A DNA stretch of 9,294 nt, from IMG/VR virus record IMGVR_UViG_2531839179_000014; one strand, 5' to 3'. Shown one piece after another: positions 1-9,294 of this stretch (the first letter of the stretch is position 1; every line of letters starts with the position of its first letter). Under the pieces are notes generated by a model. It was not told the origin of the DNA. It searched no databases and saw nothing but the letters and a program-made list of their open reading frames with translations. A program made the translations under genes and the position numbers. This DNA comes from a virus (lineage: Duplodnaviria > Heunggongvirae > Uroviricota > Caudoviricetes).

Positions 1-875
1 ATGGCGAGTAAACCGGCTGATAAATGACCCTGAACTTCGGGTTCTCCTTCAGCCAGCTCTGTGTTTCCCGGCTTTTGTGGATAATGTAGTTGTCCACGAT
101 CAGCGTGATGGTTTTCGCCCGACGGTATGTCGCTTTAAGCCGCTTCAGCAGGCTGATGAACAGCGCCGAACTTTTGCTGTTGCCGCCCACATAGCTGACT
201 TTACCTGTCCCGCTGTGCAGCGCTCCGGCCAGATAATATTTTTCATTCTGTCCCGGCGTGACCACCCGTTTTTGCTGTCCGCGCAGTTGCCAGTCCGCAC
301 CGATTTTGGGATGAAGATGGATATCCACTTCATCTTCATAAATGACCGGATGCTCTGCGCTGCATTCGTCCAGTGCTTTATGGATTGCTGCCATCTTTTC
401 ATCTTTATGCGGGTCACGGATACGCAGAGTTGGCGCAGCCCTTCGCCACACAATCCCCGCAGACGGCAACCAGCGGCGAACGGTTCCGGCATTTAACTGG
501 CAACCGGTTATCTCATTGATTTTTATTGCCAGCAGTTCTGTACTCCAGCGTGAACGCTGGTAGCCAAAGTCGCCGGGAGAATGTTTTTACCAGCTCACGT
601 AACAGTGTGCAGATATGCTCAAACGGCCAGCGACGGGCACGCCCGGCAGGTAATGATTTCAGTCCCTCAACACCCGACTGCGTGAACCAGTTAATCCAGC
701 GTCCAACAGAGGAACGGGCGCAGCAGAGCGTTCTGGCAACGTCGCTGACACGGTCGCCCCGGTGCAGCATCAGCATGGCAGTCAGTCTGCGGGCATAATT
801 TTTATCATGTGTTTTATGGATGGCTTTCTGCATCAGGCGTCGTTCGTCACGGGAAATTGGTGCTATGATCGGCAT
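1..875 (-). pseudogene. IS630-family DDE transposase, N-terminal HTH part (513-875) and catalytic part (1-586) in different frames
   Basis: Minus-strand translation of 1-586 gives ...RWSTELLAIKINEITGCQLNAGTVRRWL...VIYEDEVDIHLHPKIGADWQLRGQQKRVVTPGQNEKYYLAGALHSGTGKVSYV...TLIVDNYIIHKSRETQSWLKENPKFRVIYQPVYSPW, the characteristic IS630/Tc1 catalytic core. The N-terminal ORF 513-875 (HTH RVSDVARTLCCARSSVGRWINWF) ends in a different frame; frames switch at the T5 run at 584-588. The listed ORF 145-492(-) is an out-of-frame artefact. Confidence 0.75.
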
Positions 876-975
876 TGCTCAGTCCGGTTGGTGATTTGTT
901 TTGATTTGGCGATTGATCAGATCGCACAATCCGGGCTAAGTTCCCTCAAAGTGATCTACTATTCCGCGCAGCTAT
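1..975 (-). mobile_element. IS630/Tc1-mariner-family insertion sequence, partial (runs off the window start); right boundary approximate
   Basis: Contains the transposase below plus ~100 bp of 5' leader (876-975). The boundary with IS30-derived sequence lies near 960-980 at a TTAG/TA junction, consistent with TA-target insertion by this family. Terminal inverted repeat not identified. Confidence 0.6.
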
Positions 976-1231
976 TTAGAATTTACTGTCAGCACCGGCG
1001 TTAAAGTTTACTTCTGCGATCCTCAGAGTCCTTGGCAGCGGGGAACAAATGAGAACACAAATGGGCTAATTCGGCAGTACTTTCCTAAAAAGACATGTCT
1101 TGCCCAATATACTCAACATGAACTAGATCTGGTTGCTGCTCAGCTAAACAACAGACCGAGAAAGACACTGAAGTTCAAAACACCGAAAGAGATAATTGAA
1201 AGGGGTGTTGCATTGACAGATTGAATCTACA
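965..1231 (+). mobile_element. IS30 3' remnant including the right terminus
   Basis: Transposase stop at 1222-1224 is followed by TTGAATCTACA ending at 1231, the reverse complement of the IS30 terminal TGTAGATTCAA. The 5' ~1 kb of IS30 is absent. Confidence 0.8.
979..1224 (+). pseudogene. insI: IS30 transposase C-terminal fragment (last ~80 codons)
   Basis: Translation EFTVSTGVKVYFCDPQSPWQRGTNENTNGLIRQYFPKKTCLAQYTQHELDLVAAQLNNRPRKTLKFKTPKEIIERGVALTD* matches the C-terminus of IS30 InsI as recalled. There is no start codon or N-terminal part; sequence upstream of ~975 is unrelated. Confidence 0.85.
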
Positions 1232-2127
1232 ACAGCGTATTTTGCACAGGAGTCGCTGAAAAATACGCGTTAATCGAACAATGGCGACAACAATTTCCCA
1301 TTGAAGCGATGTGTCAGGTATTTGGTGTATCCAGGAGCGGTTATTACAACTGGGTACAGCATGAACCCTCAGACAGAAAACAAAGTGATGAGCGGCTAAA
1401 ACTGGAGATTAAGGTGGCACATATCCGCACTCGCGAAACATATGGAACCCGGCGGCTCCAGACGGAGCTGGCAGAGAATGGCATCATCGTTGGTCGTGAC
1501 CGACTGGCACGTCTTCGTAAGGAGCTAAGGCTACGCTGTAAGCAGAAACGCAAGTTCAGAGCGACTACGAACCCGAACCACAATCTGCCAGTTGCGCCAA
1601 ATCTGTTGAACCAGACGTTCGCTCCTACAGCACCAAATCAGGTCTGGGTGGCGGACCTGACGTATGTTGCCACACAGGAGGGATGGTTGTACCTCGCTGG
1701 CATCAAAGATGTTTATACGTGCGAAATTGTCGGCTACGCCATGGGAGAGCGCATGACAAAAGAGCTGACAGGTAAAGCCCTGTTTATGGCGCTCAGGAGC
1801 CAGCGCCCACCTGCCGGGCTAATCCACCACTCTGATCGAGGTTCACAGTACTGCGCATACGATTACCGGGTCATACAGGAGCAGTTTGGTCTGAAAACAT
1901 CAATGTCGCGTAAAGGTAACTGTTACGACAACGCTCCGATGGAAAGCTTCTGGGGAACGCTGAAAAATGAGAGCCTGAGCCACTATCGTTTTAATAACCG
2001 GGATGAAGCCATCTCAGTAATACGGGAATACATTGAGATTTTCTACAATCGTCAGCGTCGTCACTCTCGTCTGGGGAATATCTCCCCGGCAGCCTTCAGG
2101 GAAAAATATCATCAGATGGCTGCTTAA
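1232..2127 (+). pseudogene. IS3-family OrfB (DDE integrase-core transposase), 5'-truncated by the IS30 insertion
   Basis: Reading frame is open from the IS30 stop through ORF 1309-2127. Motifs WVADLTYV, HSDRGSQY and MSRKGNCYDNAPMESFWGTLKNE (DDE catalytic residues) and a C-terminal YNRQRRHSRLG are present. No orfA upstream. Confidence 0.85.
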
Positions 2128-2170
2128 AAAAAGAACAAATGGTAGTGTCCGCTATTGCCAGTACACCTCA
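1232..2170 (+). mobile_element. IS3-family element, 3' portion only (orfA and the orfA/orfB frameshift window are missing); right end approximate
   Basis: Begins immediately after the IS30 right terminus. OrfB stops at 2127; a candidate terminus ...CCAGTACACCTCA ends near 2170 (IS3-family ends are TG...CA). The arrangement resembles the IS911-interrupted-by-IS30 configuration known in E. coli K-12, but identity to IS911 is not verified. Confidence 0.6.
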
Positions 2171-2303
2171 TTTCGATATCCGGGACGCCAATCCCGACGC
2201 CAGATTTTGCTGGCGCGTGAGGAATATAGCCCCGGATTAACGTTGTCGTCAACAGCCACTACAGGCTAAACTAACAATATTCCCCAACAACGAAGGATTT
2301 AAC

Positions 2304-2591
2304 ATGGCTCAGGTCTATTTTGATACACTGAAGTTCGTCGAAACCTTGGAAGCCGCAGGAATGCCGGCAGCTCAGGCGCGCGCTATATCTGCCGCAGTGA
2401 AAGATTCTCACGAAGCCGCAGAAGTCGCCACAAAGCGCGACCTAAATGATGTCAGAACTGAACTAAAAAACGACATTGCAGCCCTTGATGCAAAAATAGA
2501 CAAACTCAGCCTGCAACTGACCGTCAGATTTGGTGGCATGCTCGTCGTTGCTGTTGGCGCACTGACAGCCATCATCAAATTACCTCTTTAA
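2304..2591 (+). CDS. Small coiled-coil protein with C-terminal transmembrane anchor (XhlA-like/DUF1640-like architecture)
   Basis: ORF 2304-2591 with SD AAGGA 6 nt upstream of ATG. N-terminal amphipathic region (DLNDVRTELKNDIAALDAKIDKLSLQL) followed by hydrophobic GGMLVVAVGALTAIIKL. Family assignment is from architecture only. Confidence 0.6.
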   Translation: MAQVYFDTLKFVETLEAAGMPAAQARAISAAVKDSHEAAEVATKRDLNDVRTELKNDIAALDAKIDKLSLQLTVRFGGMLVVAVGALTAIIKLPL

Positions 2592-2595
2592 ATTA

Positions 2596-2614
2596 CCAGC
2601 CCGTTCGGGGCTGG
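2596..2614. terminator. Bidirectional hairpin between convergent genes
   Basis: CCAGCCC-GTTCG-GGGCTGG (7-bp GC-rich stem) lies 5 bp after the + gene stop (2591) and 6 bp after the minus-strand peptide stop (2621). Flanking T/A tracts are short (TTTACC on +, TAATTTAAA on -), so intrinsic termination strength is uncertain. Confidence 0.5.
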
Positions 2615-2620
2615 TTTACC

Positions 2621-2704
2621 TTACCCCCAGCGGCAAATCGAATACACAACCAGCGCCACCGCCATTGCAATTCCTACCGTGGTGAATGCTTCAGGCCAGG
2701 TCAT
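2621..2704 (-). CDS. 27-aa hydrophobic peptide MTWPEAFTTVGIAMAVALVVYSICRWG (not in the supplied ORF track)
   Basis: ATG overlaps the stop of the upstream gene (ATGA at 2701-2704). SD GGAGGA lies 9 nt upstream. Single predicted transmembrane helix; ends 6 bp before the hairpin. Confidence 0.4.
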   Translation of the reverse strand: MTWPEAFTTVGIAMAVALVVYSICRWG

Positions 2705-3218
2705 CGTAAAACATCCTCCACGCTTATCAGTCCATTTCGCTTCAGGTAATCCATCGCCTTCTCCGGTAATTTGCAGTCAGGCTTAGCTTTTTTCAGTTGA
2801 CTGACCAGTCGTTTAACCCACATTGTTAATTCGCTAACCTGATTACTGGATGCTAGTAGGTTGTCGGCTTTACCCAGAATGACAGCACAGCAAGCCTCTT
2901 TGAGTACCCAGTCAACAGCGTCTTTCCATGCTCCTGTTTCGACTGGTGGATTCTCACGCTTTACCTGTTCATAAAAGCGCACGGCTTTAACCAGTCCTTC
3001 TGATGTCACCTGGACTGGCGGGGCAGTGAATAAGGCCTGAATTTCATAGTTCGGCCTGTCGTTACAATCCTCTTTTTTCGGTACATATTTCCAGTCACCA
3101 GACCACCACTTCCCCTGAAAGTCCGTAACGCCTTTTTTTTCACGTAGCGATATCGCCATGCCACTGTTTTTGCTTGCCCCGCCGTTTCATGCCCTTCCTG
3201 ATAATTAATCTCGCTCAT
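2701..3218 (-). CDS. Hypothetical protein (~175 aa if fused), interrupted by a frameshift at the T8/A8 run at 3133-3140
   Basis: ORF 3006-3218 (MSEINYQEGHETAGQAKTVAWRYRYVKKK...) starts by ATGA overlap with the upstream gene and has a GGGG SD. ORF 2701-3159 (..KGVTDFQGKWWSGDWKYVPKK...ISVEDVLR) continues in the -1 frame from the A8 run. One extra A would give a single ORF. No family recognised. Confidence 0.55.
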
Positions 3219-3391
3219 TCATCGCCCCACTCATCACAATATGCTTCGACCGGAGTTTTTCCTGCTTCATAATCATCACGCCATGCTTCAGCATCAGCAG
3301 CACTGCCACCACGTAACTCTGCATAGTCCATTAACAGTTCATGCCATTCTTCAAAACTGACGTTGTATTTAGTTGAACCAAAATCAGCCAT
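3215..3391 (-). CDS. 58-aa acidic protein MADFGSTKYNVSFEEWHELLMDYAELRGGSAADAEAWRDDYEAGKTPVEAYCDEWGDE (not in the supplied ORF track)
   Basis: ATG at 3391-3389 overlaps the stop of the upstream gene (ATGGCTGA) and its stop overlaps the next start (ATGA). Open frame with enterobacterial codon usage; D/E rich. Confidence 0.5.
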   Translation of the reverse strand: MADFGSTKYNVSFEEWHELLMDYAELRGGSAADAEAWRDDYEAGKTPVEAYCDEWGDE

Positions 3392-3566
3392 TTTGTTCTT
3401 CCTCTTCGTCTTTTATTTCGTGATATGAGTAATTGCAGTAGTTAAAGAAAATATCTTTTGCTTCGTCATGTATTTCATCAGGCGTCGCATCATCATCCAC
3501 TTCGAATTCATCCTCGAAATCTCCACCGGCTATTCCCGTTTCAATAATAATTTTGAACTTTCGCAT
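3384..3566 (-). CDS. 60-aa highly acidic protein MRKFKIIIETGIAGGDFEDEFEVDDDATPDEIHDEAKDIFFNYCNYSYHEIKDEEEEQNG
   Basis: Part of listed ORF 3384-3602. I place the start at the internal ATG (3566) because the upstream 36 nt run into the IS10-like terminal repeat. About one third of residues are D/E. First gene of a four-gene coupled series. Confidence 0.55.
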   Translation of the reverse strand: MRKFKIIIETGIAGGDFEDEFEVDDDATPDEIHDEAKDIFFNYCNYSYHEIKDEEEEQNG

Positions 3567-3577
3567 TTCACTACCGC

Positions 3578-3587
3578 CCTTTCGGGC
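3578..3587. repeat. Left copy of the direct repeat CCTTTCGGGC flanking the IS10-like element (target-site duplication)
   Basis: The identical 10-mer occurs at 4890-4899 immediately outside the other terminus. IS10-group elements make 9-bp duplications. Confidence 0.75.
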
Positions 3588-4889
3588 CTGAGGGATCCCC
3601 ACAAAATTACTGCTAATAAACCAACACCATATTTCGGTAGGTTCTGGACAGATGGTTTAGAACTGTGCTCAGTACTGTTCGTCTTAAAATAAGTGGCGAG
3701 TGTCGAAGAACATTCTTCGCTAACGTCAGATATGAGATAACCCGCCGGGATTTAATGCTGTTAGCCTGATATTTCAGGTGTAACCCTTTATTTTCAGCGT
3801 GATAACCGAGTAACCACATTACGATAGTGCTCAACGTTGCCAGCAGACTCAGAACCAGAATTCTTCCTGTTGAACGACTTTTGCTGGCCCGAAGACCAAA
3901 TCCGAAGCGCCCGTTCTTTTCATCACGAAAGTTTTGCTCTATCTGCATTCGCCGACTGTATAACTTGATGATTTCTCGCGCTCTGAAGTCATTTGTACTG
4001 CTGAAGATCAACCAGGCTTCTTTTGCTGATTTGCTCTGTTCTTTGTCTGTTTTGTTTAAACCACTCTGACCTTTCGAACGTTTCTTTTTTCGCCCTTTTG
4101 CCGATTTCTTATAGGTGTAAAAATGCCCCCGGATGCTTTTTTTCCTTTCTTTAACCAGCCTTCCAGCCCCCATATATTCCGGTGTTTTACATTCAGGGCT
4201 ATCCGACACTTTTTAACCATCTTTCAGGCGCGTTATCGAGGCAATACTGAACGTTATTTCTGATCCGACCAATAAAATCCCAGCCCAGAGAAGTAATATG
4301 GTGAAACCATGCGCTCTGAAATCCAGCATCCGTGACAATAATAACCCTGGCATCGGGGGGCAGGGATTGAGCAAGGGAATCAAGGAAATCATGTTGTATC
4401 AATGGATTATTTTGTTTTTCAGAAGGAACAACCTTACTCAATAACGGAATGGAACGCCCGTCACACAGAAGGCTGGCACGAAGAACATGATGCTCCTGGG
4501 AGGGATAGCCACTCCAGTCTACGGCTATTACACATAAAGATAACTGCCGTGTCAGCATTGAAGTGATATTCCTGAAAATCATTGGAATATCGCGATGGAG
4601 CGCCTCATTACCCATGAGGCGATCAATACGTTTGCTCTTATTCTTAACTTGTGCATTACCCGGCAAAAAACGTCCGATACTGGTCAGCGTCAGAGATGCT
4701 CCGTTGATTAACACCACTGTGGCATCCATCAGGGCATTTTGTCGGTACTGATGAAATGGTGCTAAGGCATCCCGGAAGAAATTCTGACATACTTTATGAA
4801 CAGGCATAGCAGTGATCTCATTGAATTGTTGGCACAAATCAGTAGATCACATAATGCTATGTCTGTCTCGTTTTCTGGGAATTCCTCAG
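3588..4889 (-). mobile_element. IS10-like insertion sequence (IS4 family), ~1.3 kb, apparently complete
   Basis: Left end CTGAGGGATCCCCACAAAATTACTG (3588-3612) resembles the IS10 inside end as recalled; right end read on minus from 4889 is CTGAGGAATTCCCAGAAAACGAGAC. The two ends match at 17 of 22 positions. GATC sites sit in the left terminus (3594-3597) and near the transposase start (4814-4817, 4845-4848). Confidence 0.85.
3613..4837 (-). pseudogene. IS10-like transposase, split by a frameshift near the A5/T5 run at 4210-4214
   Basis: N-part (ORF 4199-4837) has KRIDRLMGNEALH, IAVDWSGY, VLRASLLCDGRSIP, VIIVTDAGFQSAWF, LGW. C-part (ORF 3613-4209) has the IS4-family YREK signature YSRRMQIEQNFRDEK. 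Both are collinear with IS10 transposase as recalled. The start may be TTG at 4837 or ATG at 4807. Confidence 0.8.
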
Positions 4890-4899
4890 CCTTTCGGGC
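4890..4899. repeat. Right copy of the direct repeat CCTTTCGGGC flanking the IS10-like element
   Basis: See left copy at 3578-3587. Confidence 0.75.
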
Positions 4900-4971
4900 G
4901 GCCTCCTGATGATTTGAGGGTGCAGGAATCCCTCCGGTTAAGGATTAAATTTTTAACAGTGCTAAATTTAA

Positions 4972-5328
4972 TTATTCAGTTCTGGATTTTGTCGCCCTGC
5001 GTATCCGCGCTTTCGCGTTACGCTCAATCTGTATCAGCTTTTCTATATTTCTCCGCCTTTCCTGTTCCTCCTGGCGCAATAGCCTTACATCATCTGCCAG
5101 TCTGGTTTCTCTTTTTGCCACAGAGAGCATCCAGTCAAACGGCTCCACAACCGCACCGCAGATTTTACAGCGGACCTGACGCTCTTTTTCGTCAACCCGT
5201 ACAGAGGCGTGATGGCAATATGGTCTTTCCGATGGCTCATAAAGAAAATTAACCTGATTACGAGGGCCATCCTCTTTTATCGGAAATAAAACGATATTGC
5301 TTAACTCATCTTCTGGGTTTATTTCCAT
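4972..5328 (-). CDS. Hypothetical protein with Cys/His cluster and basic coiled-coil tail (possible zinc-ribbon regulator)
   Basis: Inside listed ORF 4972-5385. I prefer the ATG at 5328 (MEINPEDEL...) because it has a strong SD AAGGAGAGGAG, whereas the ATG at 5385 directly abuts the upstream stop. Contains YCHH...(15)...CKIC and a C-terminal R/E-rich helix. Confidence 0.55.
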   Translation of the reverse strand: MEINPEDELSNIVLFPIKEDGPRNQVNFLYEPSERPYCHHASVRVDEKERQVRCKICGAVVEPFDWMLSVAKRETRLADDVRLLRQEEQERRRNIEKLIQIERNAKARIRRATKSRTE

Positions 5329-5385
5329 GCTCCTCTCCTTTGATGCGAATGCCAGCGGTAATTGAAGCCTGATAGCTAATTTCAT

Positions 5386-5808
5386 TCACAGTATCGCCTC
5401 CTGAAAATTACCCTGATAGAAAGCCAGTACACGCTGCATAGCTTCGCTCTTCCGGCACTCGCGACAGATTATATTCAGGCGCCTGTCGTAGCGACGTATT
5501 TCTCCGTCAGGTAATGACCAGATAAGGTCCGGATCAACAACAACCGGTTTCCTCACCTTTACTCTCGAGAGTTTTTTGCGGGCGCTTTGCCAGTCCTTGC
5601 GAGCCTGTTCAGACGGGAATAAGCCGTAGCCAGAATTATATACATCACCACTTGCGACCAGTTCTATGCATAAGCGACCGACAGACGCACGACTGATACC
5701 TGTTTCATCGGACAACTGCCGAATCGTGACCCGACCGTCCTGATGCACGAGTTCCACAATTCGCGTCTTCAGTTCTTCCCGCTGTTCGGGAGTAAAAGGT
5801 TTCGCCAT
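5386..5808 (-). CDS. Hypothetical phage protein with N-terminal winged-HTH-like region
   Basis: ORF 5386-5808 with SD AGGAGG 4 nt upstream of ATG. N-terminal VTIRQLSDETGISRASVGRLCIELV resembles an HTH; the C-terminal half is unassigned. Confidence 0.6.
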   Translation of the reverse strand: MAKPFTPEQREELKTRIVELVHQDGRVTIRQLSDETGISRASVGRLCIELVASGDVYNSGYGLFPSEQARKDWQSARKKLSRVKVRKPVVVDPDLIWSLPDGEIRRYDRRLNIICRECRKSEAMQRVLAFYQGNFQEAIL

Positions 5809-5822
5809 AAATCCTCCTGAAA

Positions 5823-6569
5823 CTACTTAACAACCCTCGAATGGCTAACATCCGGACGCCAGCTCTCCCAGTTAAAATTCACCCAGCGCCCGCCGTTCAT
5901 GACCATGCGATCCATCACCCGCTCGCCGAGCAATGTTTTCATCACCTCATAGTTCAGGTTTGTCAGCATCCCCACGCTGCGCATCGACGCTGTCCGGCGA
6001 TCAACAATCTGGTGCAGCACCACCTGCTCGTTTTTCGTCTCGCGCTGAATGCCAATTTCATCAAGAACCAGCAGATCCACTTCGCACAGCTCCCGCAAAA
6101 ATTTTTCGCCTGACTGCCCGTCGTCATAGCTGGCGTGCAGGGCGCTCATAACATCAGCCACGGTAACCACAATCACTGTCTGACCGTCTTTCAGCAGGCG
6201 ATTCCCGATAGCTGCCGCTAAGTGATTCTTCCCGGTACCAGGTTTTCCGCTGAACGCAAAATTTGTACACCCGGTCATCAGTTCATCGGCGATGGATTTC
6301 GCCTGGCTTAACGCGTATCGCTGGCCGTCGTTCTGCACCTGGTAATTCGCAAACGAGCATTTACGGTGCAACGGCTGGATGCCTGAGCGATTCAGAATTT
6401 TTTCCACCCGCAACTGGCGATTCAGGCGGTTGATCTCCTCGCTACGTTTCTGGCCTTCAGCAAGTTGCCACTCGCGCCACTCCGCTACCGTTCTGAATGG
6501 GGCGGTTACATGTGGCGGGGTCAGTCGGCGGATGCGTTCCAGAACGCCGCCTGTCGCAATATTTTTCAT
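5823..6569 (-). CDS. DnaC/IstB-like AAA+ helicase loader (phage replication protein)
   Basis: Walker A GKPGTGKNHLAAAIG and Walker B LLVLDEIG are present. Sits immediately downstream of the O-like gene, as in lambdoid and Rac-type replication modules. Confidence 0.85.
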   Translation of the reverse strand: MKNIATGGVLERIRRLTPPHVTAPFRTVAEWREWQLAEGQKRSEEINRLNRQLRVEKILNRSGIQPLHRKCSFANYQVQNDGQRYALSQAKSIADELMTGCTNFAFSGKPGTGKNHLAAAIGNRLLKDGQTVIVVTVADVMSALHASYDDGQSGEKFLRELCEVDLLVLDEIGIQRETKNEQVVLHQIVDRRTASMRSVGMLTNLNYEVMKTLLGERVMDRMVMNGGRWVNFNWESWRPDVSHSRVVK

Positions 6570-6575
6570 GGTCCG

Positions 6576-7359
6576 TTACCCCCTGAAGCCTGGCGGGATC
6601 GCACTGTCCGGCAACGAGACGGTGTTAACCTGTCGGAGCAACGTCTCAGGCCGAACACCTTTCGGCGCGAACAGGCCCTGGTATTCATTGGCGATGCTGT
6701 GTCGAATCACCTGCTCAGGTGTAAAACCCTGCTGACGGAATTTTTCCAGTTCCCGTATCGCCCCGTTAGCGCCCTGCTCCGTTCGAATCGGTTTTCGCAA
6801 TGCCTGTCTGAACCGGACCCACTCATGCCAGAGTGTTTCCGGCAACCAATCGGGCAGCTCAATAGCCTCCGGCTCGAATTTTTTAGACGCTCGTTTTTGG
6901 CGAGGGGGATTTAGGGGGAGATCTGTATTTAGATCTTCCTCTTCCTCTGGTAACGCTTTTTGATCCGTTTGTGTAACGCTGGCAGCGTTACCTTTTCGTT
7001 TCAGTTCGCGTATTTTTGTTACTCGCTCGTTTGTAACCGCCCGTTTTTTTAGAGCTTTTTCCGTTATGACGTTCAAAGTTAGGTAGAGAAAGCCCACCGT
7101 CATTTTCGACCAGCCATCCAACCTGAATTAACGCATCAGCAAAACCAGACATAAAAGTGATGCGATCTATTGCACTTTTTGTAACGCCGCGAGCGTTACA
7201 ATCTGCATTACCGTCTATCATTTGTTGATCCGCCCATGCCCAGAAGCGAATAACCTTCCCTAATGCGGCATCTGGATCAATATTCAGAATCTCAGCAAGC
7301 CTGAATATTTCCGGCTTATCCGGCGTAATAACCTCGAGCTTTATCCAGTTTGAAGCCAT
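6576..7359 (-). CDS. Replication initiator/replisome organizer (lambda O-like, YdaU-like), interrupted by a frameshift at the T7/A7 run at 7044-7050
   Basis: N-part ORF 6988-7359 (MASNWIKLEVITPDKPEIFRLAEIL...LPNFERHNGKSSKK) and C-part ORF 6576-7121 (...RAVTNERVTKIRELKRKG...LPDWLPETLWHEWVRFRQALRKP...) overlap at 6988-7121 in different frames. Removing one A from the A7 run fuses them into ~260 aa. Position is between the YdaT-like and DnaC-like genes. Confidence 0.6.
6972..6992. repeat. 21-bp palindrome, copy 3 (GTAACGCT-ggc-AGCGTTAC), inside the O-like coding region
   Basis: Perfect 8-bp arms. It is one of three related palindromes in this region. Confidence 0.7.
7180..7200. repeat. 21-bp palindrome, copy 2 (TGTAACGC-cgcga-GCGTTACA), inside the O-like coding region
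   Basis: Perfect 8-bp arms; differs at one base from copy 1. Confidence 0.7.
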
Positions 7360-7371
7360 TTGTTTTCACCT

Positions 7372-7392
7372 TGTAACGCTCGCAGCGTTACA
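7372..7392. promoter_or_regulatory. 21-bp palindrome, copy 1 (TGTAACGCT-cgc-AGCGTTACA), in the intergenic region just upstream of the O-like start
   Basis: Perfect 9-bp arms. Lies between the YdaT-like stop (7447) and the O-like ATG (7359), overlapping the region just 5' of the O-like SD (AAGGTGA). Candidate operator. Confidence 0.55.
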
Positions 7393-7446
7393 TTTAACTG
7401 ATACCGAACAAAACAATCCGGCACGATTAATTTCAATCAATGCACT

Positions 7447-7858
7447 ACGACAGAATCGCCGGGCGACCCACCACCGCTGAAATGTGCTTTCCGGTAAACG
7501 GCCTGGACAGCATCATCATGCGCATCAATTGCCGTACTCAACGCTTCCTGCGCCGCCAGTAATGCACGGCGTTCCAGGGTATCGAAGATACAGAGTCGGT
7601 GACGCAGCTCACGCGGAAGAATTGCCAGAACCGCAGGGATCAGTTTCTGAATTTTTCCCTTTGCGCTTTCGTTTCACCTTTCAACCAACGGTGATAGATA
7701 TTCTGCTGATTGTTCCAGTCCTTGCCTGGTACCAGAGACAATTCGCCGCCCCCCTGCCGCAGATATTCTTCAGTAATTGCGTTAGCGACCCACGCCTGCC
7801 CTTTTTCGGCTGCCAGGGCTAACAGCACTGATTCGATGTGCTCATGCCTGATTTTCAT
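7447..7858 (-). CDS. YdaT-like protein (CII-like regulator or putative toxin family), interrupted by a frameshift at the T5/A5 run at 7652-7656
   Basis: ORF 7640-7858 (MKIRHEHIESVLLALAAEKGQAWVANAITEEYLRQGGGELSLVPGKDWNNQQNIYHRWLKGETKAQREK) continues in another frame as IQKLIPAVLAILPRELRHRLCIFDTLERRALLAAQEALSTAIDAHDDAVQAVYRKAHFSGGGSPGDSVVVH*, ending at 7447. One extra A would restore ~140 aa. Start overlaps the dicC-like stop. Confidence 0.6.
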
Positions 7859-8069
7859 GAATCACCTTCCCAGGTCGTTTTGCCTTACGATATTCGTCAT
7901 AAACTTTGGGGTCGTACTGAAGTTCCCCGCCAGATGCCTCTTGCAGGCGCATCGCGCGACCTTCAGGAACCAGTTCCCCCCATGCAGCAATGCTTGCCAG
8001 CCTAACTCCTGCGGCATTGGCAAGCTTTGTTTTGCTGCCAAAAAACGCTATAGCATCAATTTTCAACAT
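7842..8069 (-). CDS. dicC: Cro-type small DNA-binding protein, DicC/YdaS-like
   Basis: 75-aa ORF divergent from the DicA-like repressor, with strong SD AAGGAG 6 nt upstream. Its size and divergent position match DicC; assigning it to the YdaS/DicC-type Cro-like family is from recollection. Confidence 0.75.
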   Translation of the reverse strand: MLKIDAIAFFGSKTKLANAAGVRLASIAAWGELVPEGRAMRLQEASGGELQYDPKVYDEYRKAKRPGKVIHENQA

Positions 8070-8145
8070 ATCGAGCTCCTTAGATTTTCCTAAGAAAACC
8101 AGATCGTAGAGAAACCTAAGTCAAGAAAAATTAGAATTCCCTAAT
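8070..8145. promoter_or_regulatory. Divergent promoter/operator region between the dicC-like and dicA-like genes
   Basis: Two copies of a 15-bp motif: TTAGATTTTCCTAAG (8080-8094) and GTAGAGAAACCTAAG (8106-8120). A -10-like TAGAAT (8132-8137) lies 8 bp before the dicA-like ATG, which has no SD. Confidence 0.6.
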
Positions 8146-8553
8146 ATGAAAAACGAAACCTTCGGTGCTCGCCTCTTACATAGGCGTAAAAAATTAAAAC
8201 TGTCTCAGGCCGCATTAGGTAAGCTGGTCAAAGTGGCTCACGTAACAATTTCTCAATGGGAAAGAGATGAAACACAGCCGGCGGGGAAAAGATTATTCGC
8301 ACTGAGCCAAGCGCTTCAGTGCTCACCGACTTGGCTTCTTTTTGGGGATGAAGATAAACAACCAGGCGAACCGATCCCGGATAATCAGCCAGCCATTCTG
8401 ACAGAAGATCAAAAAGAGTTACTTCAACTGTTCGACGCACTGCCTGAGTCAGAGCAAAAGGCCCTGTTGTCAGAGATGCGTGCTCGAGTTGAAAATTTCA
8501 ACAAACTTTTTGAAGAACTACTCAAAGCTCGCAAAAGAAGCGCAAACAAATAA
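8146..8553 (+). CDS. dicA: DicA-like XRE-family HTH repressor (no C-terminal peptidase domain)
   Basis: 135 aa. N-terminal HTH LSQAALGKLVKVAHVTISQWERDETQP. Blocks LFALSQALQCSPTWLLFGDEDKQP, ALPESEQ and MRARVENFNKLFEELLKARKR match E. coli DicA as recalled. Confidence 0.8.
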   Translation: MKNETFGARLLHRRKKLKLSQAALGKLVKVAHVTISQWERDETQPAGKRLFALSQALQCSPTWLLFGDEDKQPGEPIPDNQPAILTEDQKELLQLFDALPESEQKALLSEMRARVENFNKLFEELLKARKRSANK

Positions 8554-8619
8554 TCCCCTTTTTTCTCCACACCCTGTAATAAAAAGCACAAACTTTCAAA
8601 CACTTGTGTTTTTTACATC

Positions 8620-8680
8620 AAAAAACTTAGGTTTTTCTACATAAAAATCTTGACCACCCACCTTAGGTTATTCTAAATTT
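8620..8680 (+). promoter_or_regulatory. Promoter/operator region for the ydfA-like operon downstream of dicA
   Basis: Two more copies of the 15-bp motif in inverted orientation: CTTAGGTTTTTCTAC (8626-8640) and CTTAGGTTATTCTAA (8662-8676). They bracket a -35-like TTGACC (8650-8655) with A/T-rich -10 candidates at 8673-8680. Confidence 0.55.
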
Positions 8681-8755
8681 CATTCATCAAGACACCGCAC
8701 GGTGTTCTCAGCAAACAGTTCCGCTACCCCGGCGTTAAGGGGAAATGGGGTCAAC

Positions 8756-8911
8756 ATGAATACTATCGATCTTGGCAACAACGAATCTCTGGTGTACGGC
8801 GTGTTCCCCAACCAGGACGGCACATTCACCGCCATGACGTATACCAAAAGCAAAACGTTTAAAACCGAAGCTGGCGCACGTCGTTGGTTGGGAAGACATT
8901 CAGGTGAGTAA
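8756..8911 (+). CDS. ydfA: YdfA-like small protein (51 aa)
   Basis: Internal ATG of listed ORF 8702-8911, preceded by GGGG 5 nt upstream: MNTIDLGNNESLVYGVFPNQDGTFTAMTYTKSKTFKTEAGARRWLGRHSGE. Position after dicA is as in the E. coli Qin dicA-ydfABC-dicB operon; sequence identity is from recollection. Confidence 0.55.
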   Translation: MNTIDLGNNESLVYGVFPNQDGTFTAMTYTKSKTFKTEAGARRWLGRHSGE

Positions 8912-8912
8912 A

Positions 8913-9116
8913 GTGAACGAGACAGAATTAAAACGCGTTATCGCTCTACTCCCAGAAGATGCAAAACGCCTCCAGCAACTGGAGCCAAATGCAGGCACTG
9001 GGGCACGCATCTGGCTGGCTAAAGAAGCGCTGGAATCTGGCGATTATGATAGCGAAGAAGCCTTCTACAAAGCAGAAGGCCGTGCAGGATATTCACCGGG
9101 TCTTGGCGGGGTATAA
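8913..9116 (+). CDS. Small acidic protein, YdfB/YdfC-like by position
   Basis: Listed ORF 8904-9116; I prefer the GTG at 8913, preceded by SD AGGTGAG (VNETELKRVIALLPEDAKRLQQLEPNAGTGARIWLAKEALESGDYDSEEAFYKAEGRAGYSPGLGGV). Overlaps the ydfA-like stop region. Assignment is positional only. Confidence 0.45.
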   Translation: MNETELKRVIALLPEDAKRLQQLEPNAGTGARIWLAKEALESGDYDSEEAFYKAEGRAGYSPGLGGV

Positions 9117-9294
9117 ATACCATGCGCATTGACTGAATTCGCAAACAAAAACAGACGCGCGATACCCGGATAGTCGGTCTGCATAGTCAGATATCTGGCT
9201 GCGAATTTGATAAATATCACCGCTCTTTTCGGAAACATAAGTTCCGTCCGGGAGTTGATTATACGAACCATCTCCATGGGGGATCGTTCTCCTG

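Follow-up and report, generated by a model that had tools for sequence, protein, structure and literature searches.

Frameshifts at mononucleotide runs are known from three kinds of systems. In Shigella, frameshift pseudogenes accumulate alongside insertion sequence (IS) decay; slippage at A/T runs kills genes of cryptic prophages, and the broken alleles are inherited across lineages. In 454-era assemblies, homopolymer errors split open reading frames (ORFs) by one base, and these splits are absent from short-read-based assemblies. In contingency loci, a poly-A tract in a coding region is present in the population at in-frame and out-of-frame lengths.

The window examined here is a 9,294-bp stretch of DNA that corresponded to the whole of contig AFFZ01000059.1, which belongs to the 2011 draft of Shigella dysenteriae 155-74, GCA_000211935.2. 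The encoded proteins were EGI98185, EGI98187, and EGI98188 of this strain. A sequence-only reading had noted five genes split at A/T runs and leaned toward homopolymer assembly errors as the source of the whole pattern, with prophage decay and phase variation as alternatives. Our analysis indicated that the five sites are a mixture of two phenomena rather than one. Error fit sites 1, 3, and 5, decay fit sites 2 and 4, and phase variation was unsupported. We consider it probable that two inherited frameshifts and three miscalls together explain all five sites.

Five split genes in the 155-74 contig

Nested copies of IS630, IS30, and IS600 were present in the contig, together with a small cassette from a prophage, a copy of ISSfl1, and the replication module of a Rac-like prophage; this lambdoid cryptic prophage was interrupted by all four IS elements. 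All five split genes were on the minus strand. The IS630 copy (positions 1 to 981) was truncated by the contig end and was 99.6% identical to an annotated IS630 with a single 343-aa ORF; its transposase reading frame began at 875, and the corrected translation contained Pfam DDE_3 and HTH domains. The cassette gene (2701 to 3218) was present as 70-aa and 152-aa ORFs and had no Pfam or NCBIfam match. The third gene was in an insertion at 3588 to 4891 that was 99.6% identical to an annotated ISSfl1 with a 397-aa ORF. Its transposase, which spanned 3613 to 4807, matched NCBIfam transpos_IS4_2 (E = 1.7e-107), and the element described earlier as IS10-like was ISSfl1, of the IS4 family.

The remaining two genes were in the replication module. 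The first (6576 to 7359), a putative replication initiator of 260 aa when intact, was present as 123-aa and 181-aa ORFs. It had been called O-like, and it was indeed split, but the RefSeq name for its close homologues was "phage replication initiator YdaU family protein"; the gene had no Pfam match. The second was ydaT (7437 to 7858), a YdaT_toxin family gene of 140 aa when intact, and its corrected protein matched Pfam PF06254 (E = 5e-11).

The five runs were located at 584 to 588 (T5, site 1), 3133 to 3140 (T8, site 2), 4210 to 4214 (T5, site 3), 7044 to 7050 (T7, site 4), and 7652 to 7656 (T5, site 5), and the earlier coordinates and frame breaks held at all of them. In each case, two ORFs in different frames abutted at the run, and alignment with an intact homologue revealed a change in run length. 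A one-base change in the run restored ORFs of 140 aa (ydaT), 260 aa (YdaU family), 397 aa (ISSfl1), and 172 aa (cassette gene), and in the case of IS630 it yielded an uninterrupted frame up to the contig end. Hence, an intact orthologue and repair by a single base, as expected of a frameshift pseudogene, were found. A/T runs of at least 5 bases made up 3.25% of the window, and the probability that five random indels would all fall inside them was about 4e-8; therefore, the association of the five frameshifts with homopolymers was not due to chance.

The comparisons that follow rest on what could be observed directly: which contig this is, how long the runs are in other assemblies, and that one-base corrections restore the ORFs. 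Because the complete genomes of the CP0268xx series carried many G/C-run deletions of their own, they were used for A/T runs only, beside short-read-based assemblies. More generally, "complete" long-read genomes are unsafe for judging homopolymer length because several are full of such deletions.

Run lengths shared with other Shigella assemblies

The sequence-only reading had proposed that run lengths be compared with those of orthologues, reasoning that shared broken frames would mark real pseudogenes. The comparison gave a divided answer: orthologues had the same broken frames at sites 2 and 4 and in-frame lengths at sites 1, 3, and 5. Likewise, independent assemblies from low-indel platforms reproduced the run lengths at sites 2 and 4 and did not reproduce those at sites 1, 3, and 5.

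In the case of site 2 (3133 to 3140), the window had T8, which is A8 on the coding strand and one base shorter than the in-frame A9 allele. The A9 allele, which encodes an otherwise identical protein of 172 aa, was found on 2 S. boydii contigs. Other intact homologues (WP_016236032 and WP_032290902) were 171 aa; the intact length is 171 to 172 aa and not 175 aa as first estimated. E. coli cassette homologues that were 95% identical had TC-T6 where the window had CC-T8. T8 was present in all 11 sampled Shigella loci. These came from several species, and among their sources were complete genomes, one NCTC genome, and three recent SRR runs in Logan. The exact 152-aa frameshifted product was found on 54 contigs.

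Similar results were obtained with site 4 (7044 to 7050), where the window had T7 and the intact allele had T6 (+1). This site was scored by exact-protein look-ups, as a 61-bp megablast search came back empty, probably due to low-complexity masking. T7 was present in 12 loci examined, including recent SRR and ERR runs and the closest relatives (L029 and L030), which differed from the window by 4 to 6 SNPs per 4.4 kb; an NCTC S. dysenteriae locus (L013) also had T7. The exact 123-aa frameshifted product was found on 84 contigs, and the T6 (A6) allele, with an otherwise identical protein, was found on 50 contigs. Among the sources of these exact products of sites 2 and 4 were complete genomes from several Shigella species as well as recent runs of the short-read era. 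We conclude that T8 at site 2 and T7 at site 4 are genuine inherited pseudogene mutations and that the replication initiator is truly broken, which answers the practical question that the sequence-only reading had raised about the replication module.

The T8 and T7 runs were the longest of the five and a priori the most error-prone, and the sequence-only reading had singled them out for heterogeneity testing.

The idea that all five frameshifts are homopolymer assembly errors had several points in its favor: every site was a mononucleotide run, the source was an early next-generation draft, and 454 Titanium reads assembled with Celera 6.0 had been used in a sister project that the same centre ran in this period (PMC3491183). 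At sites 2 and 4, however, this idea is already refuted by independent assemblies, since T8 and T7 were present in dozens of assemblies from differing centres and platforms, including recent SRR and ERR runs and pathogen-surveillance assemblies. Error as a general explanation therefore kept its fit to the three T5 runs and lost T8 and T7, and we give almost no credence to the idea that it accounts for all five sites.

Phase variation would treat the A8/A9 and A6/A7 tracts as contingency loci that reversibly turn the cassette gene and the initiator on and off. ON and OFF alleles did co-circulate (A9 on 2 contigs versus A8 on 54, and T6 on 50 versus T7 on 84), and slippage switching, if real, would explain why both persist with otherwise identical proteins. 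However, T8 was invariant in the 11 Shigella loci from several species, which indicates stable inheritance and not rapid switching, and the closest relatives share T7. Hence, variation in tract length among close relatives was not observed at T8 in these 11 loci or at T7 in L029, L030, and L013. In addition, the tracts are short compared with classical cases, and there is no obvious selected function because the prophage is otherwise IS-degraded. We therefore regard phase variation as highly improbable. It is equally hard to credit that the A6/A7 and A8/A9 tracts act as switches by which a Rac-like prophage of Shigella gains and loses the competence to replicate.

Inherited decay is the reading that we prefer for sites 2 and 4. 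Replication slippage in an ancestor produced the T8 and T7 runs, which were then inherited across Shigella lineages. In this IS-riddled, Rac-like cryptic prophage, it inactivated both the YdaU-family initiator and the gene of the cassette.

Run lengths private to the 155-74 draft

The three T5 alleles behaved differently from T8 and T7, as restriction to one assembly, which is expected of an artefact, was found at sites 1, 3, and 5 and was not found at sites 2 and 4. At site 1 (584 to 588), the window had T5 and intact IS630 had T4 (+1). None of 414 other records had T5 at this position (269 from E. coli and 145 from plasmids), and the frameshifted 120-aa product was seen on the window's contig only. 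These counts suggest that T5 at site 1 is probably a miscall.

At site 3 (4210 to 4214), the window had T5 in place of the usual ISSfl1 T4 (+1). The orthologous ISSfl1 copy in NCTC S. dysenteriae (L013) was identical to the window from 2171 to 5235 except for one base at site 3. T4 was present in all 15 other ISSfl1 copies examined, the orthologous insertion included, T5 was found in 0 of 69 plasmid records, and the corrected transposase was VDG92924.1. As with site 1, T5 is probably a miscall.

Programmed frameshifting in IS630 and ISSfl1 was ruled out because each reference copy had T4 at the position concerned and encoded its transposase in one uninterrupted ORF (343 aa in IS630 and 397 aa in ISSfl1). 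In contrast, the same records flagged programmed frameshifts in their copies of IS600 and IS1.

We also considered whether three ISSfl1 copies with T5, G5, or G7 in two drafts, which we assume came from the same sequencing project, proved 454 error. This argument was dropped because the G5 and G7 products were also found in NCTC and other complete genomes, so copies with G5 or G7 at 4355 to 4360 were corroborated by other assemblies. A look-up of P0154 for more of the AFFZ backbone gave only ten ISSfl1 copies, all from one other genome.

At site 5 (7652 to 7656), the window had T5 and the intact ydaT allele had T6 (-1), its context reading GGG-A6-TTC. The T5 allele was absent from all modern assemblies: none of 695 E. 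coli genomes had it, and the run was T6 in all 24 other loci, including L029 and L030. The intact YdaT protein was found on at least 1,000 contigs and the frameshifted fragment on 3 Logan contigs. The only recurrences of T5 were in Logan contigs from two 2010-era runs, SRR060520 and SRR059932, with haplotypes that were 17 SNPs from the window and 1 SNP from each other. Because only old runs showed it, the recurrence speaks for a platform artefact and not a mutational hot spot; indeed, a natural hot spot at the T6 run was ruled out by the genome and contig counts. Thus, T5 at site 5 is very likely a platform-specific undercall.

The main competitor for these three sites holds that all five mutations are genuine, two being ancestral and three being private to 155-74 and due to ongoing decay of ISs and the cryptic prophage. 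The reality of sites 2 and 4 is proven, Shigella assemblies often carry frameshifted ISSfl1 copies, and 155-74 had time to diverge, given the 4 SNPs that it alone has in the 4.4-kb replication module. In addition, no AFFZ-private indel was found in 20.6 kb of the draft's backbone when K-12 and a genome of 99.96% identity served as references. With such a clean backbone, three errors in 9.3 kb require a locally poorer consensus, such as that of a short repeat-rich contig. Moreover, a consensus-level overcall of T4 to T5 is not the most frequent pyrosequencing error.

Several observations ran against private mutation. Apart from the 2010-era ydaT recurrences, which were in unrelated haplotypes, the T5 alleles of sites 1, 3, and 5 were missing from the other copies and orthologues examined. 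The ISSfl1 and cassette region matched its orthologue over about 3 kb with the indel as the sole difference. Natural slippage is rare at T4 runs, and two of the three private indels were at T4 runs. In addition, thirteen 6-base and two further 7-base A/T runs were the same as in L013, L029, and L030, relatives of better assembly quality, where covered. Finally, over about 6.4 kb outside a 310-bp mosaic patch, the comparison of the window with L013 gave 2 indels against 4 SNPs, and in the 4.4-kb replication module 1 indel and 4 SNPs were found in no relative. These ratios of indels to SNPs are unnaturally high, and we counted them in favor of miscalls at the private sites. Together, these observations made the idea that all five mutations are genuine unlikely, though it is the most serious of the alternatives.

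Miscalling is therefore the reading that we favor at sites 1, 3, and 5: the in-frame lengths seen elsewhere make homopolymer miscalls the most likely source of these three T5 runs, ahead of strain-private mutations. Length miscalls would have been carried into the draft consensus, and the living strain would probably have T4, T4, and T6, with intact genes, at these sites. We infer that the 155-74 draft was made by pyrosequencing, and the proposed link between this draft and the 454 sister project is our own. Literature searches found no paper that named the AFFZ sequencing platform. The window's exact YdaV protein was not found in Logan, so the 155-74 reads are probably outside that collection.

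Comparison with known systems

The value of these results lies mainly in curation of the record. The cassette gene and the prophage replication initiator are truly dead in this contig. Comparison with intact copies suggests that ydaT and the two transposases (IS630 and ISSfl1) look broken in the record only and that the living strain probably has them intact. Run length was a poor guide to artefactual homopolymer frameshifts, as the longest runs here were real.

Contingency loci share with this contig a coding-region poly-A tract that has in-frame and out-of-frame lengths in the population, but the tracts here were only 6 to 9 bases, and their length was fixed among close relatives. The 454-era errors resemble sites 1, 3, and 5 in being one-base ORF splits that short-read-based assemblies lack, and for site 5 the same ydaT undercall occurred in other 2010-era runs. 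The differences are that two of the three cases here would be T4-to-T5 overcalls in short runs and that the 20.6-kb backbone sample was clean. Sites 2 and 4 are ordinary Shigella genome decay, and nothing in the five sites calls for new biology. As in other Shigella frameshift pseudogenes, slippage at A/T runs killed cryptic-prophage genes and was inherited across lineages, and there was no substantial difference from the known pattern; here, the intact and the frameshifted forms, whose proteins are otherwise identical, are both still in circulation.

Arrangement of the window and its five interrupted frames

Exact-sequence look-ups matched window proteins to EGI98185, EGI98187, and EGI98188 of Shigella dysenteriae 155-74, and the window corresponds to all 9,294 bp of contig AFFZ01000059.1 (assembly GCA_000211935.2). 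The window begins with a minus-strand IS630 copy (1-981) that runs off the contig end. This copy interrupts an IS30 remnant (about 977-1231) that is itself inserted in a truncated IS600 (1230-2170). A contig end inside IS630, in such a nest of elements (1-2170), is typical of repeat-induced assembly breaks. These elements are followed by a small CCDC90-like ORF (2304-2591), a minus-strand prophage cassette of three genes (2701-3602), an insertion of the IS4-family element ISSfl1 (3588-4891), and a Rac-like prophage immunity and replication module (4890-9294) with DUF977, ydaV, YdaU-family, ydaT, cro-like, cI-like, and DUF1391 genes. In relatives that lack ISSfl1, such as locus L029, queH takes the place of the cassette after the replication module, which suggests that the ISSfl1 copy (boundaries 3588 and 4891) marks a rearrangement or deletion junction joining two prophage segments. 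A 310-bp patch (5236-5545), in which the window departs by about 30 substitutions from the NCTC S. dysenteriae locus L013 that it elsewhere nearly matches, looks like a recombination mosaic spanning the boundary of a 137-aa ORF and the DUF977 gene. The L013 DUF977 gene is also broken by IS600/IS30, at 5507-5517.

The sequence-only reading had placed five frameshifts at A/T homopolymers, and all five runs were confirmed exactly: T5 in IS630 (584-588), T8 in a cassette gene (3133-3140), T5 in ISSfl1 (4210-4214), T7 in the YdaU-family putative initiator gene (7044-7050), and T5 in ydaT (7652-7656). Each run was the meeting point of two minus-strand ORFs in different frames. As proposed, both gains and losses of one base were implied. 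Specifically, alignment with intact homologues showed T5 versus T4 in IS630 and ISSfl1 and T7 versus T6 in the YdaU-like gene (+1 in all three), and T5 versus T6 in ydaT (-1). In the case of the cassette gene, CC-T8 of the window aligned with TC-T6 of E. coli homologues that are 95% identical, and T8 corresponded to the A9 allele, which is in frame in S. boydii, minus one base. One-base corrections restored ORFs of 140, 260, 397, and 172 aa and opened the IS630 frame. A/T runs of at least 5 bases make up only 3.25% of the window, so it is not by chance that all five breaks fall in them (P of about 4e-8). Programmed frameshifting was rejected because the reference copies of IS630 and ISSfl1 each have a single ORF, whereas IS600 and IS1 copies from those records are flagged as programmed frameshifts.

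Inherited run lengths in the cassette and YdaU-like genes

A 152-aa cassette fragment with the A8 run in frame within it was found on 54 contigs, and a 123-aa YdaU-like fragment that included the frameshifted tail was found on 84 contigs (113 index blocks). When DNA was read directly, T8 was present in 11 of 11 fetched Shigella loci, which came from complete genomes (CP026836, CP026824, CP026845, and CP026846), an NCTC assembly, two drafts, and three recent Logan runs. T7 was present in 12 loci, among them ERR/Logan assemblies as well as L029 and L030, whose replication modules are the closest to that of the window and differ from it by just 4 to 6 SNPs in 4.4 kb. Sister alleles that are in frame, and whose proteins match in all other respects, are still in circulation (T6 in the YdaU-like gene on 50 contigs and A9 in the cassette gene on 2 contigs). 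Therefore, T8 and T7 are real and represent ordinary slippage mutations that became fixed by descent; the prophage that carries them is interrupted by IS elements as well. The independent assemblies refuted the idea that all five frameshifts are errors, and genuine decay of a cryptic prophage held for these two genes. Phase variation of the tracts, which had also been suggested, is very improbable; ON and OFF alleles coexist, but T8 was unchanging across the sampled Shigella and the inheritance of T7 was stable, and the tracts are short and lie in an element that has decayed in other respects.

The poly-C tract of ydaT (C6 in the window, 7749-7754) varied between genomes: it was C5 in CP026824, C7 in E. 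coli DEC5A, whose ydaT is marked as frameshifted in RefSeq, and C9 in CEA601S, which is in frame with one codon more. In the acidic linker of the YdaU-like gene (6934-6950), the number of CTTCCT (GAAGAG) hexamers varied in frame among relatives, and indels of 6 and 18 bp shortened or lengthened the Glu-rich stretch. The last 19 aa of the corrected YdaU-like protein (6576-6635) gave a weak NCBIfam match to the C-terminus of the primosomal protein DnaT (E = 0.0056, far below the cutoff); this could be a helicase-loader contact motif or a chance similarity.

Run lengths private to the draft

The remaining three runs were searched with 61-bp probes centred on each run, such that only the T5 allele could score 100%. 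The IS630 T5 was found in none of 269 E. coli records and none of 145 plasmid records (111 from Shigella), the ISSfl1 T5 in none of 69 plasmid records, and the ydaT T5 in none of 695 E. coli genomes. Among fetched loci, 15 of 15 ISSfl1 copies had T4 and 24 of 24 ydaT copies had T6. At the orthologous ISSfl1 insertion in L013, the sole difference from the window over 2171-5235 was the T in the 4210-4214 run, and the transposase of that copy (VDG92924.1) was the corrected window protein. The L029 and L030 replication modules carried T7 as in the window, but T6 in ydaT. Comparison with orthologous prophages thus divided the runs, with T8 and T7 recurring in relatives and the T5 runs of ISSfl1 and ydaT not doing so. 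Outside the mosaic patch, the window and L013 differed by 4 SNPs and 2 indels over about 6.4 kb, and the ratio of private indels to private SNPs is unnaturally high. Two private indels were at T4 runs; by contrast, thirteen A/T runs of 6 bases, and two of 7 bases besides T7, matched the better-quality relatives that covered them.

Elsewhere, the 72-aa frameshifted YdaT fragment was found on only three Logan contigs, and the intact protein was found on at least 1000. Two of the three were readable, SRR060520 and SRR059932, both early accessions in the 2010 range. Relative to the window they had 17 SNPs, a repeat expanded by 18 bp, and T6 at 7044-7050, and they differed from each other by 1 SNP in 419 bp. 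Hence, the ydaT T5 occurred on three haplotypes, all in data of the 2010 era. Later assemblies are numerous, and a real allele or natural hot spot would be expected to show up in them, but the T5 did not. The simplest account is a context-specific undercall of A6 (GGG-A6-TTC) on one platform. A sister project that the same centre ran in that period used 454 Titanium and Celera 6.0 (PMC3491183), and the 155-74 draft (AFFZ) was presumably made by the same route. A homopolymer miscall is very likely for the ydaT T5 and probable for the IS630 and ISSfl1 T5 runs, all of them confined to a single old draft as assembled; for these three, assembly error is favored over decay to the same degrees.

Draft quality and reference run lengths

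We compared 20.6 kb of AFFZ01000026.1 (thrA to nhaR, including another ISSfl1 copy) with K-12 and the complete genome CP027027 (99.96% identical). This stretch contained no AFFZ-private indels and 6 SNPs, and the two indels relative to CP027027 were both G-run deletions in CP027027. Therefore, the draft is not globally poor. This clean backbone is the strongest point in favor of the view that the three private indels, and with them all five frameshifts, might be real, but the window is a short, almost wholly repeat-built contig, where consensus is weakest, and we consider it unlikely that all five are real.

In the CP0268xx complete genomes, G/C runs were shortened at many places (such as C5 to C4 and G6 to G5), so "finished" long-read genomes are unsafe arbiters of homopolymer length. 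The "complete" Shigella records CP026836, CP026824, and CP026845 showed numerous 1-base G/C-run deletions relative to several other assemblies; in CP026824 alone, roughly 15 runs differed in length by one base over about 6.5 kb, and many of their apparent pseudogenes may be artefacts. Two 2011 drafts held three ISSfl1 copies, each with a different frameshift (T5, G5, or G7); this was dropped as a pyrosequencing-error signature because other assemblies also contain the G5 and G7 products. The G6 run of the ISSfl1 transposase (4355-4360) was G5 in many copies (at least 10 in CP026845 alone), G5 in the yaaH-mog copy of both AFFZ and CP027027, and G7 in S. boydii 5216-82. Two explanations fit the G5 form: amplification of a defective IS lineage, or recurrent undercalling of the G run on PacBio and 454.

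The proposed miscalls in IS630, ISSfl1, and ydaT belong to a known class of artefact, and the frameshifts in the cassette and YdaU-like genes are ordinary inherited pseudogene lesions, the biology of which is already known.
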